DNA from: a virus
IMG/VR virus record: IMGVR_UViG_3300036794_000042
Location: 9,465 to 73,464 of that record
DNA length: 64,000 nucleotides
Strand: one strand, 5' to 3'
Part shown: piece by piece, positions 8,959 through 63,031 of the stretch
Position numbering within the stretch: position 1 is the stretch's first letter
Layout: every line of letters starts with the position of its first letter
Notes under the pieces: model-generated
Told to the model about the DNA's origin: nothing
Seen by the model: only the letters and a program-made list of their open reading frames with translations
Database searches by the model: none
Position numbers and translations under genes: made by a program

Positions 8959-9684
8959 ATGGCAGGAGGGCGGACCTGGGAAGGTGACGTGCCGTGCCTG
9001 GGCGTCACCAACTCAGGCCGTCCCTGCGGTGAGAAGGAGATCGCGGGGCTCGAATACTGCCTGCACCACATCCCCGATGACCTGCTCGATGAGGCGGAAG
9101 AGATCACCGGCATCAGGCGGTGCAGGCACCGCTTCATGGAGGCCGACGCCTGCCGGTACTACGCCACCCAGGGCACCGAGCCGCCGATGTGCAAGAACCA
9201 CGGCGCGAACACCGGCAGCTACCAGTCCAAGATCGCGGCTGGCAGGGTGGTCGAGGGCCGCGCGGTGGACCGGCTGGCCGAGATCATGGCCGAGAACGGC
9301 GACCGGCTGCTGACCGCGCCGCCCGTGGATGACCCGCTGGGCGAGCTGCTGAACCTGGCCGGGGAGATCCGCGAGATGAAGGAGATCCTGCGCCGCGTCG
9401 TGGCCTACCTGTTCAGCCAGGACCGGGTGAGGTACGCGCACAACAAGATCGGTGAGCAGCTCCGGTCGGAGATCCTGCTTTACGAGCGGGCACTGGAACG
9501 TTATGCCACCATCCTGCTCAACATCGCCAAGCTGAACATCGCGGACCGGCTGGCCACCGTGGAAGAGAAGCAGATCCTGGCCATCGAGACCGCGCTGGAC
9601 AAGGCACTGAACGAGACCGGGCTGGACCTGGTGGGCCAGGACAAGGCCCGGAAGGCACTGCGGCGGCATCTCAAGGCGGCCTAG
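8959..9684 (+). CDS. Probable terminase small subunit
   Basis: Two Cys/His clusters (C.G.T.SG.PC...C.HH; C...A....C.NHG, HGG-type) plus helical C-terminus, two genes upstream of TerL. Confidence 0.6.
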   Translation: MAGGRTWEGDVPCLGVTNSGRPCGEKEIAGLEYCLHHIPDDLLDEAEEITGIRRCRHRFMEADACRYYATQGTEPPMCKNHGANTGSYQSKIAAGRVVEGRAVDRLAEIMAENGDRLLTAPPVDDPLGELLNLAGEIREMKEILRRVVAYLFSQDRVRYAHNKIGEQLRSEILLYERALERYATILLNIAKLNIADRLATVEEKQILAIETALDKALNETGLDLVGQDKARKALRRHLKAA

Positions 9685-11746: not shown

Positions 11747-12325
11747 ATGAGCGCATCGACCAAGAAGGTGGAAGTCCGTGCCAGGCGTATCAACCGCATT
11801 ATGGTGACCTTGGCGATTATCAGCCGGAGTCATCGGGGTGACAGCCAGGCTTGCATGATCAGGAATGCGGTTGCTGAGGCTATCCCTGGAGCCACCAGGA
11901 TCATGGTGGATCTCCAGCACGTCCGGTTCACGCTCAACGGGTACAGGTACAGGTACCCTCTTCCCCCCGTGGCGGCCTATCGGCTGGCCAGCTTCGAGTC
12001 AGGCGATGTAGTCGAGCCGTTTTCATTCAGCCTGCGAGACGGGACGGTCTACCTGTCCAAGGGCAACGACCACAAGCCGGGAGGGCCTGCGGCCATCAGG
12101 GCCTGGGCAAAGGAACAGGGCCTTACCGTCCCCTCAAACAAGCACATCACCCCGGAAGTGAAGGCGGCATACGCTGCTGCTCATCCCGGTGTCAGGATCG
12201 CCAGCAGCAGTCATAGCGGGCAGCCGGGGGCCATGACCAGGAAGGCCCGCAGCCAGATCCAGGCTGACAGGTTCTACGGCCTGAAGCTGGCCACTGGATT
12301 CCAGCCAGGTGGAGTGCCTGGCTGA
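11747..12325 (+). CDS. Protein with an Lsr2-like C-terminal DNA-binding domain fused to an unknown N-terminal domain
   Basis: AAIRAWAKEQGLTVPSNKHITPEVKAAYAAAH aligns with the Lsr2 DBD (AAIREWARRNG..VS.RGRIP..V..AY.AA). Confidence 0.7.
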   Translation: MSASTKKVEVRARRINRIMVTLAIISRSHRGDSQACMIRNAVAEAIPGATRIMVDLQHVRFTLNGYRYRYPLPPVAAYRLASFESGDVVEPFSFSLRDGTVYLSKGNDHKPGGPAAIRAWAKEQGLTVPSNKHITPEVKAAYAAAHPGVRIASSSHSGQPGAMTRKARSQIQADRFYGLKLATGFQPGGVPG

Positions 12326-57344: not shown

Positions 57345-57555
57345 GAATTACCTCTCCCTGAAGAATGCCCGGCTGGCCAGGACGCACACCCACCGTGATG
57401 CCCGTTGCCGCACCGTCTGCTGATTCCTGGTCATTGAACGGGATGACAATTTCAACCCCGGGCGGATGGCCAGCGCGCACCAGGTCATTGATCTCTATCT
57501 CAAACGCCTGCGGCAGCCTGACCACCACCTCCCAGGCGCGGGCTGGCTTAGCCAT
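57328..57555 (-). CDS. Hypothetical protein
   Basis: Fills the gap between helicase and nuclease with overlaps. Confidence 0.5.
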   Translation of the reverse strand: MAKPARAWEVVVRLPQAFEIEINDLVRAGHPPGVEIVIPFNDQESADGAATGITVGVRPGQPGILQGEVIHDHDQ

Positions 57556-59419
57556 CGAATAGCACGCCCTGCCCGGACTCGGCTGGCTCGGCCCCGGTCA
57601 CGATCCAGCGCAGCAGATCCGCGTCACGGGTCACGTTCATGACCCGCTCGGCCTTCTCTTCACCGAGCTGGAACAGGCCCTCTTCAACGGTGTGCGGGGT
57701 GATCGAGTAGATCACCCGCACGGCCTTCTCCTGGCCGATCCGGTCCACCCGGCCGATCTTCTGCTCGCGGCTGCGGAACACCGGGTCCGGCTGGGCGAAG
57801 AAGATGGTGCTGGCCGCCGTCAGGGTGATGGCCTCGCTGCCGGCCGCGTTGATGAAGCAGACCTGCACGTCCCCGCGCTGGAACATCTCGGCCGCCGAGT
57901 CCTTCTCCATGCTGGTCATGCCGCCGACGATCCTGCTGCTGGTGATCTTGAACTTGCCGATATACCCAGTCATCAGCTCAATGAGCTGCGGGCTGTTGGC
58001 GGCCACCACGAGCTGGTCAGTCGGCTCGTCCATGATGAAGTCAAGCAGGTCATCGGCCTTGGATGACGGCGCGGTCATGCGCACCAGGTCCGTGGTGAAG
58101 CCCTGGGCATCCTCGCCGTGGGTCACCTCCACGGTCGAGACCGCCATCTGGCACAGGCGGCTGAACAGCACCCCGCTGTTGGCCGGCACGATGGTGGAGG
58201 GCTCCAGGTCGGCCAGCAGCTCCTTCCTGAGCTGCTTGTAGACCCTGGCCTGGGCCGGGGGCATCTCCGGGTAGCGGAACACCGGGTCCAGCCTTGGCGG
58301 CTGCCACGGCCGCGCGATCTCCTTGGGGATGCGGCGGATCAGCGGCTGCACCAGAGAATGGAAAGTGCGCGCCGTGTCCGGCCTGATGTCCAGCACCTCC
58401 ATCCCGCCGTGCCAGGCGTACTCCTTGATGGCGAACAGATCCAGGTACCGCGAGCGCGACGGCCATGCCCGTGGGTCGATGCCGTGCAGAATCGGCCAGA
58501 GATCATTGATCGTGTCCCCGATCATGGTGCCGGTGACGGCCCAGAAGTTCTCCGCGTGGTGGGCCAGCCACCAGACGGCTCTGGTCTGCTTGCTGCGGGC
58601 ATCCTGCATCCGGTGCGCCTCATCAGCGATCACCGTCTGGATGCGGAAGCCCTTGCGGTTCAGCTCCTTCTCGTGCAGGTCACAGCGGCCCGGGGTGGTC
58701 TTCGGGTCCTGGCCGCCGTGCTCCGGGCACCTGGCGAACGCCACGCCGGGGTACCTCGCCAGCCGGGTGTGCGTGCGCACCGATGACCAGGCCATGACAT
58801 AGACGTCAGCAGGCTCTTCGAGCGCCCGCCGCCGCCTCAGCGCGGTGCCGTCCACCACGGAGACCTTCAGCTCAGGTGCCCAGCGGTCGAACTCGCGCTT
58901 CCAGTTGTAGAGCGCCGCGCCGGGGGCGACCACCACGGCTGGCAGCCCGCCGCCCTGGCCGCGCTGCTCCAGCACCTGGAGCGCCCGGATCACCATCGGG
59001 GTCTTCCCGTTGCCCTGCGGGTCGCCCAGGATGTCCCGACGCCAGCGCACCAGCCAGGCTGTCCCGCCGCGCTGCGGCAGGAACAGCTTGCGCTCAGCGC
59101 CCTTCTCGATGGCGTCGATCTCCCTGGCGATGTGCGGCGGGGCGTCCAGTTCCTGGCGCATCGCGTAGCGCTCCTGGACGCCCTGCCAGCACGCCTCCCC
59201 GTACTTGGCCAGGGACGGCCGGATGTCGAGCGGCTGGCTGCCCCAGACCTCGCGCAGGCAGGCATAGGCGGGCCAGCTCAGATCGACCCGCCAGATGCCG
59301 TCCGCCTTGTCGTAGTTGCACCCGGGGATCTGCTCGGCCAGGTGGTGCTCAGCCTTGGGGCAGCCAATCGCCAGCCTTGGCGGCTCTACGGTTGAGTCGA
59401 TCGCTGCCCAGCTAGTCAC
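57548..59419 (-). CDS. SNF2-like DEAH helicase
   Basis: GTG 59419; DPQGNGKT, DEAH, TGT, ITLTAA, GRVDRIGQ motifs. Confidence 0.9.
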   Translation of the reverse strand: MTSWAAIDSTVEPPRLAIGCPKAEHHLAEQIPGCNYDKADGIWRVDLSWPAYACLREVWGSQPLDIRPSLAKYGEACWQGVQERYAMRQELDAPPHIAREIDAIEKGAERKLFLPQRGGTAWLVRWRRDILGDPQGNGKTPMVIRALQVLEQRGQGGGLPAVVVAPGAALYNWKREFDRWAPELKVSVVDGTALRRRRALEEPADVYVMAWSSVRTHTRLARYPGVAFARCPEHGGQDPKTTPGRCDLHEKELNRKGFRIQTVIADEAHRMQDARSKQTRAVWWLAHHAENFWAVTGTMIGDTINDLWPILHGIDPRAWPSRSRYLDLFAIKEYAWHGGMEVLDIRPDTARTFHSLVQPLIRRIPKEIARPWQPPRLDPVFRYPEMPPAQARVYKQLRKELLADLEPSTIVPANSGVLFSRLCQMAVSTVEVTHGEDAQGFTTDLVRMTAPSSKADDLLDFIMDEPTDQLVVAANSPQLIELMTGYIGKFKITSSRIVGGMTSMEKDSAAEMFQRGDVQVCFINAAGSEAITLTAASTIFFAQPDPVFRSREQKIGRVDRIGQEKAVRVIYSITPHTVEEGLFQLGEEKAERVMNVTRDADLLRWIVTGAEPAESGQGVLFDG

Positions 59420-59811
59420 CCTGCTGCCTCCATCGCGTCCGCGTAAGCCAGCCGGAGGCGCTTGCTGTAGTAGTAGCCGTCCCCGGTGGTCTTCTTGTGC
59501 CACTCATCGCTCATGCCGTTGGCGTCGGCCCACTCGCGGACCTTCTTGCCCGCACCGCTGCCGGGCGCAAGCTGCCCGCGCGTCAGGGTGCGGTTCCGGC
59601 GCGGCTTGGGCGGCGGCCCGTCCAGCTTCAGGCCGGCCCGCTTGCAGCGTTCCAGCGTCTCACGGAGCATCTTGTAGTGCTCACTGGTCAGGTCTAGCTG
59701 GTACCAGGCTCCGTCGATGCCGACGTGATCGGTCACGCTGGCCTCGATCCTGATGCCGTGCTCGTCCAGCTCCCAGTCATCCCAGAGCCGGGGCACCAGT
59801 TCCTGGGCCAT
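59416..59811 (-). CDS. lsr2: Lsr2-family protein with a divergent DNA-binding domain
   Basis: Lsr2 dimerisation domain (V.IDG..Y.LDL..EH...LR..L....AG) and VREWA.ANG; no RGR. Confidence 0.8.
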   Translation of the reverse strand: MAQELVPRLWDDWELDEHGIRIEASVTDHVGIDGAWYQLDLTSEHYKMLRETLERCKRAGLKLDGPPPKPRRNRTLTRGQLAPGSGAGKKVREWADANGMSDEWHKKTTGDGYYYSKRLRLAYADAMEAAG

Positions 59812-60158
59812 CAGGCCACCGACTCGTTGATGCGCCGGTACAGCTCGTTCCGGTAGTCCGCCCTGGTCAGCTCGGCCCGCTCGGACAGCGGCTCGGCGCT
59901 GAAGTCGCGCAGGCCGCCGCCGTAGCTCCAGGTCTCACCTGGTGCCAGCAGCTTCTCCCGCCACCGGGAGCAGTTGGGGCAGTCCTGGTGGACGAACGTC
60001 ACGCCCTGGACCTGGGACGGGCTGTAGCGGGTGCCCTTCGGCACCCTGCCCGGCTGCCAGAGCATGGGCCAGGGGTGGTGGTCGCCACGGCACGAGACCA
60101 CCCGGTCATCGACGTGCCCGAGGATCTTGGTTGCCTTGTCTACCATCTTGGTAGCCAT
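59811..60158 (-). CDS. Hypothetical protein (Cys/His motifs)
   Basis: CRGDHH.W...CPNC. Confidence 0.55.
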   Translation of the reverse strand: MATKMVDKATKILGHVDDRVVSCRGDHHPWPMLWQPGRVPKGTRYSPSQVQGVTFVHQDCPNCSRWREKLLAPGETWSYGGGLRDFSAEPLSERAELTRADYRNELYRRINESVA

Positions 60159-60632
60159 TTATTCTCCCGATCTTGATCTAAGGTTGGCCAGGATTTCCGC
60201 CTCCCGTGGCGGGACCTGGTTGGTGCGCATCATCCAGGCAAGGAGATGCTGGGCGGCGCTCTGCGCGTCGTTCTTGGCCGGCACCCACCAGCCGATGGCC
60301 CGCAGCATTGCCTGCGTGGCCACCAGCCGCTCACCCGGCTGGGCCGGGGTCAGGATGGTGCGCTTATACCGGACCGCCGCCGACTTGACCGCGCCGATCA
60401 TCATGATGGCGTCCTGGGCGTCGGCGGTCTTCTTGTGCGTCTGGGCGTTGATGGTGAATGCTTCCCAGCCGACGTGGACCTTGGTGTAGCTAATGCAGAT
60501 CCGCTCGGCCAGCTCAGCCGCCGTGGCGAAATTGCCCTCATCAATGAATGGCTGGTCGGTGGCCGGGTGCCAGACGGCAAGGCCGGTCATGCCACCCGGG
60601 TCCACCCAGGCAACAGGGAAAGCTGGCTGCAT
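60159..60632 (-). CDS. RuvC-like Holliday junction resolvase
   Basis: VDPG.MTG, WEAF, IG.VK and NDA.SA..H acidic RNase H-fold motifs. Confidence 0.75.
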   Translation of the reverse strand: MQPAFPVAWVDPGGMTGLAVWHPATDQPFIDEGNFATAAELAERICISYTKVHVGWEAFTINAQTHKKTADAQDAIMMIGAVKSAAVRYKRTILTPAQPGERLVATQAMLRAIGWWVPAKNDAQSAAQHLLAWMMRTNQVPPREAEILANLRSRSGE

Positions 60633-61066: not shown

Positions 61067-61241
61067 GGACTCTCCGGTAGGTAATCGTCACATCACCGTT
61101 GCCGTCCGCCGAGACCTGCGTATCGACACCGATGATCATGAGCGGCTGGCCGCCGTGGGAGGGCAGCATGTCGGACGGTTCCTCCCGGCCCTCCCGGTCA
61201 ACCCAATGCACTCGCGGAGCACTCATCAGGTCTTCACCCAC
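60972..61241 (-). CDS. Hypothetical protein
   Basis: Overlaps the polA stop; its 3' third overlaps the basic peptide ORF. Confidence 0.45.
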   Translation of the reverse strand: MGEDLMSAPRVHWVDREGREEPSDMLPSHGGQPLMIIGVDTQVSADGNGDVTITYRRVHEWPEWKRPWEGIAQNPGADREAAQEGPEGH

Positions 61242-63031
61242 CTGTCTTTGAGGATGGAGCCGGCCCAGGTGATCGGCACCGCGAAGCTGGTGCGGTCGGT
61301 CAGGATGCGGGTGGCCTCAGCCAGCGCCTCAGCGGCCAGCTTCTCGGGCACCTCCATCAGGATCTCGTCATGGATGGGCAGCCGCAGGTACTCACCGAAA
61401 CCGGCTGCCTCCAGGTTGACGATGCCGCGCTTCATCGTCTCGGCCGCCGATCCCTGGATCTTGTAGTTGAGCAGGGCGTACTCCTTACCCTTCTCCGAGT
61501 ACAGGCGGCGGCCGGTCAGGGTGCGGACCTCGGGCCGCCGCATCCGCTTGCCGTCGTTGATCAGCTTGTTCATCAGCGCGTTCACGCCGGGGTAGAGCTG
61601 CTGGAAGCCCATATAGCTCGGCCGCATCACCTCCACCGGGACGCCAGCCGTGACCGCTGCCTTCTCCAGGCCGGCCCCGTAGATCTGGCCGTAGGTGGCG
61701 TTCTTGGTCCGGGTGTACCGGGGGTCCTTCTTGCTGATCGTCTCGCCAAAGATCTTGGACGCCATGATGATGAAGAACGACTGGCCGGTGCGGTCCGCCT
61801 CGATGAAGTCCGCGATCATCTGCCGGTCACCGCTGAAGTGCGCGGCCTTGCGCGCCTCGATCTGGTCCGCGTCGATCGAGATGAAGACGTGCCCCGGCCG
61901 TGGCCGGTACGCACCCCGGATGTAGGGCTCATCGCGGTCATAGGTCTGCATCGGCGGATCTGTGATGCTCATCCGGGTGGTCCGGGCGCGGGACGTCCAG
62001 ATGGTGTAGTGCATGATCTGGTCCGCGTCGGCCATCTCCAGGAACTTGCCCAGGTAGCGGCCGATGATCGCCTCGCCCTTGCGGCTCCACTGGATCGCGG
62101 CCAGCAGGTCGCGGGCGTGCGGATAGGTGTTGCGGTACAGCTTCAGGGCGTCCTTGCTGATGGACGGCTGGCCGCCATCGGTGAAGACCAGGGTGGGCAC
62201 GCCAGCCGCATTGAGCGCCCGGCCGACCTGCTGGTTGCTGTTCACCGAGCTGATGCCGTGCTCGCGCAGGATGACGCTGGCCTGGGCCAGGTAGCCCTCG
62301 ATCCGGGCGATGGCACCCTGGATGTAGGGCACGTCGATCATCATGCCGGTCATCATCATGTTCGCGCAGATCCGCAGGGTGGCGCGCTCCAGGTCGTAGC
62401 TCTCGCGGAACTGGGTGGTCACCGTGCGGCCGTACTTGTCCCAGAGCCAGGCCGTCAGGACCGGATCGAGCGCGCCATAGGCCCAGTACGGTCCCCAGCT
62501 CACCGGCACCGTGGCCCAGGTCCAGTGCTGCTTCAGCATCCCGGCGTGCATCATCTGCTCGCCCGCGATGGCCCGGGGGTCCACCTCGATCGCGGCGCGC
62601 GGCTTCAGCTTGGCGGTCCGCAGCGAGTCCGCGATGTGGCCGCCGATCAGCGTGTCATGGGTGCGCTCCCAGCGCGGCTCGAAGCCCTCCCAGATCTTCA
62701 GCACCCGGTTGTCATAGGGGCTGTTGTGCGCCACCAGCTCGCCGTCATAGCGGCTCAGGATCTCGGTCGCGGCCCCGCCCCAGCCCCGCGCCGGGAAGGC
62801 CCAGCCGTGGCGCTTGTCCCCGATCTGGATCAGCCGGTCCGGGTGGCGGTGCGGCTCCAGGCCCGCGCTCTCGGTGTCGAACGCCAGCGGTGTCTCACGG
62901 CGCTCAGCGGCCCAGCGCCAGCACGCGACCAGCTCGGCCATGTTGTCCACCAGGTGCAGCTTCACGCCGTCCAGCGGGCTCCCTGACGTCCGCGCGGGGC
63001 TGTTATCGCGGACGGCCGGCAGGCTGGTCAC
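61226..63031 (-). CDS. polA: DNA polymerase I (family A) with 3'-5' exonuclease
   Basis: ExoI AFDTES, ExoII HNSPYD, ExoIII YGALD; motif A IDADQIEAR, motif B RTKNATYGQIYG, motif C IHDE. Confidence 0.95.
   Translation of the reverse strand: MTSLPAVRDNSPARTSGSPLDGVKLHLVDNMAELVACWRWAAERRETPLAFDTESAGLEPHRHPDRLIQIGDKRHGWAFPARGWGGAATEILSRYDGELVAHNSPYDNRVLKIWEGFEPRWERTHDTLIGGHIADSLRTAKLKPRAAIEVDPRAIAGEQMMHAGMLKQHWTWATVPVSWGPYWAYGALDPVLTAWLWDKYGRTVTTQFRESYDLERATLRICANMMMTGMMIDVPYIQGAIARIEGYLAQASVILREHGISSVNSNQQVGRALNAAGVPTLVFTDGGQPSISKDALKLYRNTYPHARDLLAAIQWSRKGEAIIGRYLGKFLEMADADQIMHYTIWTSRARTTRMSITDPPMQTYDRDEPYIRGAYRPRPGHVFISIDADQIEARKAAHFSGDRQMIADFIEADRTGQSFFIIMASKIFGETISKKDPRYTRTKNATYGQIYGAGLEKAAVTAGVPVEVMRPSYMGFQQLYPGVNALMNKLINDGKRMRRPEVRTLTGRRLYSEKGKEYALLNYKIQGSAAETMKRGIVNLEAAGFGEYLRLPIHDEILMEVPEKLAAEALAEATRILTDRTSFAVPITWAGSILKDRWVKT

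Follow-up and report, generated by a model that had tools for sequence, protein, structure and literature searches.

Phage-borne Lsr2-like proteins with a predicted tyrosine-rich hairpin in place of the RGR loop

Lsr2, the actinobacterial counterpart of H-NS, regulates antibiotic gene clusters as well as prophages and virulence islands, and to our knowledge all mechanistic work on this protein rests on its RGR minor-groove reader. Here we analyse a gene at 59416..59811 (minus strand) of a 64,000-nucleotide stretch of viral DNA, called the window below (positions 9,465 to 73,464 of IMG/VR virus record IMGVR_UViG_3300036794_000042), whose product, P0001, is Lsr2-like and carries no RGR. The question raised by this locus is what an Lsr2 derivative deprived of its known reader may do for a phage. 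An earlier note had proposed either a dominant-negative poison of host Lsr2 filaments or an Lsr2 with new sequence specificity, possibly forming a two-part counter-silencing system with a second Lsr2 derivative near position 11747. Our analysis places P0001 in a distinct Lsr2 subfamily, previously unnamed and undescribed, which is delimited here by sequence comparison and which we call 'long-loop' or 'YYY-type'.

Domain structure of the Lsr2-like protein

The gene and the parts of its product, as delimited on the translation and on the AlphaFold2 (AF2) model with its predicted local distance difference test (pLDDT) scores, are as follows.

59416..59811, minus strand: long-loop ('YYY-type') Lsr2-family gene encoding P0001; open reading frame and translation, 131 amino acids (aa) plus stop, with Pfam and PHROG matches
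59632..59811, minus strand: N-domain, residues 1-60, predicted Lsr2 dimerisation/oligomerisation fold (AF2 pLDDT 93-98)
59554..59631, minus strand: basic linker rich in proline, arginine and glycine, residues 61-86, net charge +5 (pLDDT 66-88, without secondary structure)
59419..59553, minus strand: C-domain, residues 87-131, with a helix (87-97) containing R92, a beta-hairpin and a second helix (117-130) (AF2 pLDDT 94-97)
59464..59517, minus strand: hairpin, residues 99-116 (GMSDEWHKKTTGDGYYYS), with strands at 104-106 and 113-115, replacing the canonical V-S-x-RGR-I-P loop

Judged by its sequence context, the Lsr2-like gene is no chance reading frame, because its start codon shares 1 nt with the stop codon of the gene upstream (TGATG), its stop overlaps the GTG start of a downstream helicase gene (GTGA, 59419-59416) and homologs are found at 92%, 68%, 64% and 43% identity. 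The translation agrees with what had first been read from the letters, namely that VREWADANG is followed by MSDEWHKKTTGDGYYYSKRLRLAY, and RGR is wholly absent from the 131-aa protein. Also borne out is the view that the protein derives from Lsr2 over its full length and has its dimerisation domain intact. The Pfam model of that domain (PF11774; beta-sheet plus helix) scores 28.5 bits against the protein (E 1.2e-6), just below the cut-off of 29.6, and in a six-frame search of the genome it scores 29.4 bits, or 29.8 bits with neighbours, above the cut-off; PHROG 1223, annotated 'Lsr2-like', covers residues 1-100 (E 6.9e-11). In the full-length AF2 model, built on 67 relatives (mean pLDDT 91.7), residues 4-64 superpose on Mycobacterium tuberculosis Lsr2 (4e1r_B) with Z 8.0, 29% identity and a root-mean-square deviation of 1.8 A over 56/56 residues; the first unrelated structure to follow has Z 4.9, and Foldseek returned 4e1p from the PDB at probability 1.00 (template modelling score, TM, 0.77 by target). 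The N-domain alone was recognised in the Foldseek (PDB) and ESM Atlas shape searches. Residue alignment to 4e1p sets D33 and R50 at the positions of Lsr2 D28 and R45, and the D28A and R45A substitutions are two of only three among 28 alanine mutants that abolish Lsr2 function in vivo (PMC2367712).

For the C-domain, we conclude that it is most likely homologous to the Lsr2 DNA-binding domain and has diverged from it, and that it is neither a new domain nor debris, because a profile comparison, consistent though weak structure matches and sequence intermediates all point the same way. When a profile of 44 long-loop C-domains (A4) was aligned with one of 17 canonical C-domains (A3) by hhalign, the two matched with a probability of 92.3% (E 5.5e-7) over 35 columns that include both helices; the alignment puts the extra residues in the loop, the RGR position being occupied by G-D-G-Y-Y-Y in P0001 and by G-x-Y-Y-Y in the consensus. 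Sequences bridging the canonical and long-loop types were found, with loops such as RGRGQGSDYIP, GGYYIP, KGYIIP and KRGYIP. The Pfam model of the canonical domain (Lsr2_DNA-bd, PF23359) sees only helix 1 of P0001 (residues 89-100), at 15 bits against a cut-off of 26.9. The structure matches to Lsr2 DNA-binding domains are weak (6qkp, Z 3.5, 23% identity; 2kng, TM 0.49/0.45, 28% identity), and the predicted structure alone is not decisive for this homology. The C-domain folded alone keeps its topology (pLDDT 87.7), and the second hairpin strand (113-115) in the AF2 model reads YYY; the isolated C-domain had no significant match in the PDB, the best being a spliceosome fragment at Z 4.2. Kinship of the C-domain with winged-helix proteins is not claimed, the winged-helix domains of pSK1 Par and RacA (Z 3.5-3.6) tying with the Lsr2 DNA-binding domain.

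Subfamily, partner gene and coexisting Lsr2 copies

The loop that the earlier note had called remodelled does depart from RGR, but it is not unique to this gene and instead marks a large conserved subfamily. A phmmer search of 1.84 billion representatives returned 116 relatives at E<=1e-3, most of them 120-140 aa long with an Lsr2 N-domain and a long-loop C-domain, and more than 60 protein clusters carry a conserved G-x-Y-Y-Y-S/P hairpin between two helices, the replacement hairpin measuring 15-18 residues in the subfamily. The C-domain consensus is x-Y-x-R-x-[LM]-R-[ED]-[WF]-A-x-x-x-G-x-x-Y-x-T-x-x-G-x-Y-Y-Y-[SP]-x-x-L-[RK]-x-A-Y-x-x-[HY]-L. Pfam recognises the Lsr2 N-domain in 67/67 aligned members and Lsr2_DNA-bd in 1/67, and Pfam-based surveys count long-loop proteins as having the dimerisation domain only. 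Across the 44 C-domains, conservation extends over helix 1 (R92 in 43/44, A95 in 42/44, W or F at 94 in 41/44), the hairpin (Y or W at 104 in 37/44, G111 in 34/44, Y113 and Y114 each in 29/44, Y115 in 41/44) and helix 2 (L119 in 41/44, an aromatic residue at 123 in 44/44), R92 being the most conserved residue of the subfamily C-domain. Such strong conservation of R92, Y115, L119 and the aromatic residue at 123 argues for a selected function of the C-domain rather than for a DNA-binding-dead poison.

P0001 belongs to a clade, together with the four homologs cited above, that has a slightly longer hairpin (D-E-[WY]-x-K-K-x-x-G-D-G-Y-Y-Y-S), and identity to P0001 outside this clade is just 19-38%. 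A quick maximum-likelihood tree of 113 members, largely unresolved, splits 19/20 canonical proteins from 78/79 long-loop or other proteins with a Shimodaira-Hasegawa-like approximate likelihood-ratio test (SH-aLRT) value of 92, which suggests one broad long-loop lineage. The source was looked up for ten members and was a metagenome assembly in every case, and the other members seen are on contigs of uncultured viruses; the guanine-plus-cytosine (GC) content of the phage and the relatives is 58-72%. Cultured phages match P0001 through the N-domain and helix 1 only. The C-domains of P0001 and of another member, P0013, were not found by tblastn in 50,697 phage records even at E<=10 or E<=1, a result that does not prove absence, and a search with the close-clade alignment against viral and genome contigs found no relatives. 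We noted that queries of 48-57 aa gave zero tblastn matches at E<=10 in the 2.3-Gb database, which is below chance and makes negatives from such short queries weak. The subfamily has gone unstudied because it is invisible in cultured phages. One metagenomic member, P0054 (253 aa), has two tandem Lsr2 dimerisation domains followed by one long-loop C-domain; it could be either a fusion of a tandem pair or a pseudo-dimer joined covalently.

The long-loop gene is accompanied by a conserved upstream gene.

59811..60158, minus strand: conserved Cys/His-rich partner gene, 115 aa, with C23, H28, C60 and C63; its stop and the Lsr2 start share 1 nt

Searches of Pfam, PHROG, NCBIfam and PADLOC returned no match for the partner protein, and the protein atlas gave nothing informative. 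In the partner alignment (A7), C23, C60 and C63 are invariant and H28 nearly so, and a C-terminal helix reading R-D-[FY]-x-x-E-x-x-R-R is conserved. Homologs of the partner lie beside or near a long-loop Lsr2 gene in 14 independent loci, the window included, and this linkage spans Lsr2 identities down to ~30%. The partner is immediately upstream, usually overlapping, in L005, L035, L003, L008/9, L016 and L018; in L010 and L011 it is one gene away, and in L006 and L014/15 the distance is 1.3-4.7 kb. Overlapping coding frames are seen in the window and in L005, L035, L008/9, L016, L018, L036 and L037. In a reciprocal test, a partner profile search gave 34 clusters, from which the three matches on the longest contigs new to the analysis were taken; all three have a long-loop, non-RGR Lsr2 gene immediately downstream, two of them overlapping, and in these downstream genes Pfam sees the Lsr2 N-domain alone. 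The sole exception among loci with some upstream sequence is L017, with no partner in the 1.8 kb available upstream, and tblastn of two partner proteins against the 50,697 phage records gave no match. The gene neighbourhoods are strong evidence that the partner and the long-loop Lsr2 form a functional pair. A borderline match of A7 to the macro domain of alphavirus nsP3 (E 0.0012, ~50 residues around C-R-A-x-x-x-x-W-P) was judged to be probably due to chance, because the partner is too short and its Cys/His pattern is absent from macro domains. At L036, L011, L037, L038 and L010, the pair lies in early or regulatory regions and not beside an SNF2 helicase gene, its neighbours being HTH_17, HTH_3 or HTH_31 regulators, serine recombinases or a DNA methylase.

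Other Lsr2 copies are found in the same phage and in related ones. In the window there is one.

11693/11747..12325, plus strand: second Lsr2 derivative, with an N-terminal part of no known kind and an Lsr2-type DNA-binding domain, without a dimerisation domain

This gene had been called a second derivative without RGR, and rightly so: Lsr2_DNA-bd scores above its cut-off, at 31.7 bits over residues 132-163 of the 210-aa frame and at 34.3 bits in the genome search, and NKH stands at the RGR position. The proposal that the two genes form a two-part counter-silencing system finds no support, because 47 kb separate them, they are on opposite strands and they belong to different modules (the 11747 gene lies between the terminase and portal genes) and because other long-loop phages have a canonical Lsr2 or nothing; the 76%-complete G003 and the 63%-complete G005 gave no Lsr2_DNA-bd match at all. 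A search of the whole 74,957-bp record found no other Lsr2 part and no canonical Lsr2, and any canonical partner of P0001 would therefore be that of the host.

Three other phage lineages encode both a long-loop Lsr2 and a canonical one with RGR, so the two types are not redundant. In L006/L007 (L006:2674-3419) and L017 (1469-2235), a canonical RGR Lsr2 gene lies directly upstream of the long-loop gene and overlaps it, and a canonical Lsr2 scoring 91.8 bits is encoded ~10 kb from the long-loop gene in G001 and in provirus G002, which holds L015. Since G002 is classed as a provirus by IMG/VR, the subfamily is not confined to non-integrating phages; G002 also has a 403-aa frame with a sub-threshold Lsr2_DNA-bd match. 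The tandem arrangement suggests an origin by tandem duplication and possibly hetero-oligomers. It resembles the Lsr2/LsrL pairs of Streptomyces and the Lsr2 paralogue of M. smegmatis, in which there are two Lsr2 proteins and one is thought to modulate the chromatin of the other; the long-loop type itself has no RGR. By analogy with Lsr2/LsrL-type paralogs, the canonical and long-loop types may co-assemble.

Candidate functions of the long-loop protein

We favour, with moderate confidence, the reading that P0001 is a functional, oligomerising nucleoid-associated protein of the Lsr2 family, of the long-loop subfamily, with altered nucleic-acid recognition. Its N-domain would self-associate and would probably co-assemble with other Lsr2 proteins, and nucleic acid would be contacted through helix 1 (R92), the basic linker and the hairpin. 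Because no RGR would be inserted into the narrow AT-rich minor groove, the DNA preference should be unlike that of canonical Lsr2. P0001 would act together with the translationally coupled upstream Cys/His-rich protein, which is probably zinc-binding, and the pair, expressed in a replication/recombination operon, could serve in organising or protecting phage DNA or in reshaping host Lsr2 chromatin during infection.

We infer that the C-domain keeps contact with DNA, because R92 (V-R-E-W-A, helix 1) is the retained equivalent of M. smegmatis Lsr2 R86 and because the charge plan is that of canonical Lsr2, with an acidic N-domain (-6), a basic linker (+5) and a near-neutral C-domain (+1). R86A is the one DNA-binding-defective, dominant-negative Lsr2 mutant, and the single RGR mutants R99A and R101A still complement (PMC2367712). 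P0001 further shares with canonical Lsr2 (Rv3597c / MSMEG_6092; structures 4e1p/4e1r, 2kng and 6qkp) the two-domain plan, size and N-domain fold, the equivalents of D28, R45 and R86, the basic flexible linker, helix 1 (I/V-R-E-W-A) and helix 2 (x-A-Y). Unlike canonical Lsr2, it has no RGR AT-hook-like turn, its loop is ~7-9 residues longer and is predicted to form a Tyr-rich beta-hairpin, it is phage-borne in a genome of 67.7% GC and it is unmatched by Lsr2_DNA-bd beyond helix 1. A silencer subfamily with a swapped minor-groove loop has a precedent in MvaT, in which the QGR loop of H-NS is replaced by an 'AT-pincer' and which keeps the DNA-binding fold and reads DNA differently (PMC8476142); unlike MvaT, P0001 belongs to another superfamily and has an aromatic hairpin, a putative DNA contact, as the replacement.

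Several observations weigh against this interpretation. RGR, the known minor-groove reader of Lsr2, is absent from P0001, and in H-NS/Bv3F analogs a change from RGR to AGA nearly abolishes binding (PMC8476142). The mean linker charge is +3.2 in the long-loop type versus +6.8 in the canonical type, and the pairwise ratio of nonsynonymous to synonymous substitution rates (dN/dS) in the C-domain is 0.35-0.78, just moderately below 1, as estimated from few sites in a genome biased in GC at third codon positions. No structure match of the isolated C-domain exceeds Z 4.2, and unrelated winged-helix and helical fragments score equally well; the conserved aromatic residues may form the core of a larger domain and not a binding surface.

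A bolder form of the favoured interpretation, which we put forward only tentatively, is that the long-loop Lsr2 and its partner make up a phage-specific two-protein chromatin module, in which the N-domain would polymerise with itself or with resident Lsr2 and the hairpin domain and zinc-binding partner would read targets other than AT-rich DNA; possible targets are phage DNA rich in GC, DNA that is single-stranded or being replicated, and the partner itself. If this were true, the module would give high-GC actinophages the means to set up a nucleoprotein compartment of their own or to rewire Lsr2 silencing in the host, and the Lsr2 family would have a second DNA-recognition mode with an obligate cofactor.

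Phage-encoded Lsr2 homologs are known in CgpS of the Corynebacterium glutamicum prophage CGP3 and in the actinophage 'Lsr2-like DNA bridging protein' (PHROG 1223), and multiple, divergent Lsr2 copies per phage are also known, in 76/354 Lsr2-encoding phages (PMC8612146). The phages of that survey tend to be of lower GC content and temperate, whereas the phage in the window is high in GC and no integrase was noted in it. Productive mycobacteriophage infection is reported to depend on Lsr2 (PMC10066036). A phage-borne branch that has the polymerising domain but a swapped reader is a natural experiment on the evolution of silencer specificity, parallel to that of H-NS and MvaT, and long-loop proteins are candidate tools or antagonists for Lsr2 chromatin.

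The poison proposed in the earlier note would work by joining host Lsr2 through the N-domain, the DNA-dead C-domain capping or weakening the filaments so that their targets are de-repressed, as with H-NST or truncated CgpS. This explanation is possible but disfavoured, and we regard it as unlikely. It fits the modelled intact dimerisation fold, the absence of RGR and the absence from the phage of a canonical Lsr2, which leaves the host protein as the only such partner, and it has parallels in the dominant-negative effect of DNA-binding-defective R86A Lsr2 in vivo (PMC2367712) and in the de-repression of a prophage by overexpressed N-terminal CgpS (PMC7074111). However, a poison needs the N-domain only, and such short phage Lsr2 proteins exist, for example the 69-aa protein of Microbacterium phage Kaijohn. 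H-NST, Hha/YdgT and the N-terminal CgpS fragment could share hetero-oligomerisation with a resident silencer, but they have no C-terminal domain of DNA-binding type, whereas P0001 keeps a confidently folded one of 45 residues that is conserved in the more than 60 clusters, including the very arginine whose loss makes Lsr2 dominant negative. In addition, genomes with the GC contents given above are poor targets for AT-directed silencing, and the tandem arrangement with the phages' own canonical Lsr2 fits modulation better than sabotage.

A different role for the same conserved C-domain, which with the poison is the main rival of the favoured interpretation and which we likewise hold to be unlikely, is that of an adaptor: the C-domain would hold the Cys/His-rich partner and the N-domain would plug the pair into host or phage Lsr2 filaments, DNA being contacted, if at all, by the partner or the linker. 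Exposed aromatic hairpins are common protein-protein interfaces, and the invariant C...H...C-x2-C pattern of the partner is typical of small zinc-binding modules that bind nucleic acids or proteins. The tight linkage of the two genes, with overlapping frames and down to ~30% Lsr2 identity, speaks for an adaptor as well; yet gene neighbourhood is the whole of its basis, the partner is missing upstream in L017 and stands off in L006 and L014/15, and the conserved arginine of helix 1 points to retained contact with DNA.

The sub-threshold Pfam scores and the fairly high pairwise dN/dS might be taken as signs of a neutral or decaying copy of Lsr2, its C-domain having no function after drift; we consider this very improbable, since the frame is intact and translationally coupled, the C-domain fold is confidently predicted, synteny is conserved and the same motif is kept in dozens of lineages at 20-35% identity. 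Most far-fetched is the idea that the hairpin is a ricin-type (QxW) lectin element binding sugars, for instance on glycosylated DNA or the cell wall: phmmer did match ricin-B lectins (P0061, P0083 and P0101; residues 82-116 or 69-131, E 1e-5 to 4e-4) whose repeats read VRQWGANG..QEW....GDGYYFI, ThreeFoil, a designed beta-trefoil, is a weak match in the PDB and glycosyltransferase genes lie near two homologs, but P0001 has one hairpin of ~25 residues (the likeness covers 25-35 residues) and not three 40-residue repeats, the hairpin is flanked by confidently predicted helices homologous to those of Lsr2, only the close clade shows the likeness (DEW/DEY ... GDGYYY), which weakens in the consensus Y-x-T-x-x-G-x-YYY, no glycosyltransferase is among the neighbours scanned in the window and the ricin-type lectin Pfam families (PF00652/PF14200) do not match P0001, and we regard the resemblance in sequence (V-R-x-W ... 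E-W ... G-D-G-Y-Y) as convergence.

Phage and operon

The virus record that contains the window is judged 99% complete. We assign it, from its genes, to an uncultured high-GC actinophage, because its DNA polymerase I shares 34-40% identity with counterparts in Micrococcus, Arthrobacter, Microbacterium and Gordonia phages, and because a search for near-identical DNA among cultured phages found none. The Lsr2-like gene is part of a minus-strand replication/recombination operon, which, besides the pair, comprises the following.

61226-63031, minus strand: DNA polymerase I (PHROG 17)
60159-60632, minus strand: 157-aa gene upstream of the partner and Lsr2 pair (PHROG 1981 only, function unknown, 1.5e-5)
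57548..59419, minus strand: SNF2-family helicase (Pfam SNF2-rel_dom, 1.1e-24, and Helicase_C; PHROG 62)
Further operon members: a PD-(D/E)XK exonuclease and a Sak4-like AAA protein

Pfam and NCBIfam gave no match for the 157-aa gene. The longest open reading frame of the SNF2 helicase (57548-59503, minus strand) opens at GTG 59503, within the Lsr2-like gene; GTG 59419 is likely to be the real start, because it gives the GTGA overlap and because homologous contigs call the same start, the homologous helicase gene calls in L005 and L034 opening at the equivalent VTSWAAIDS.

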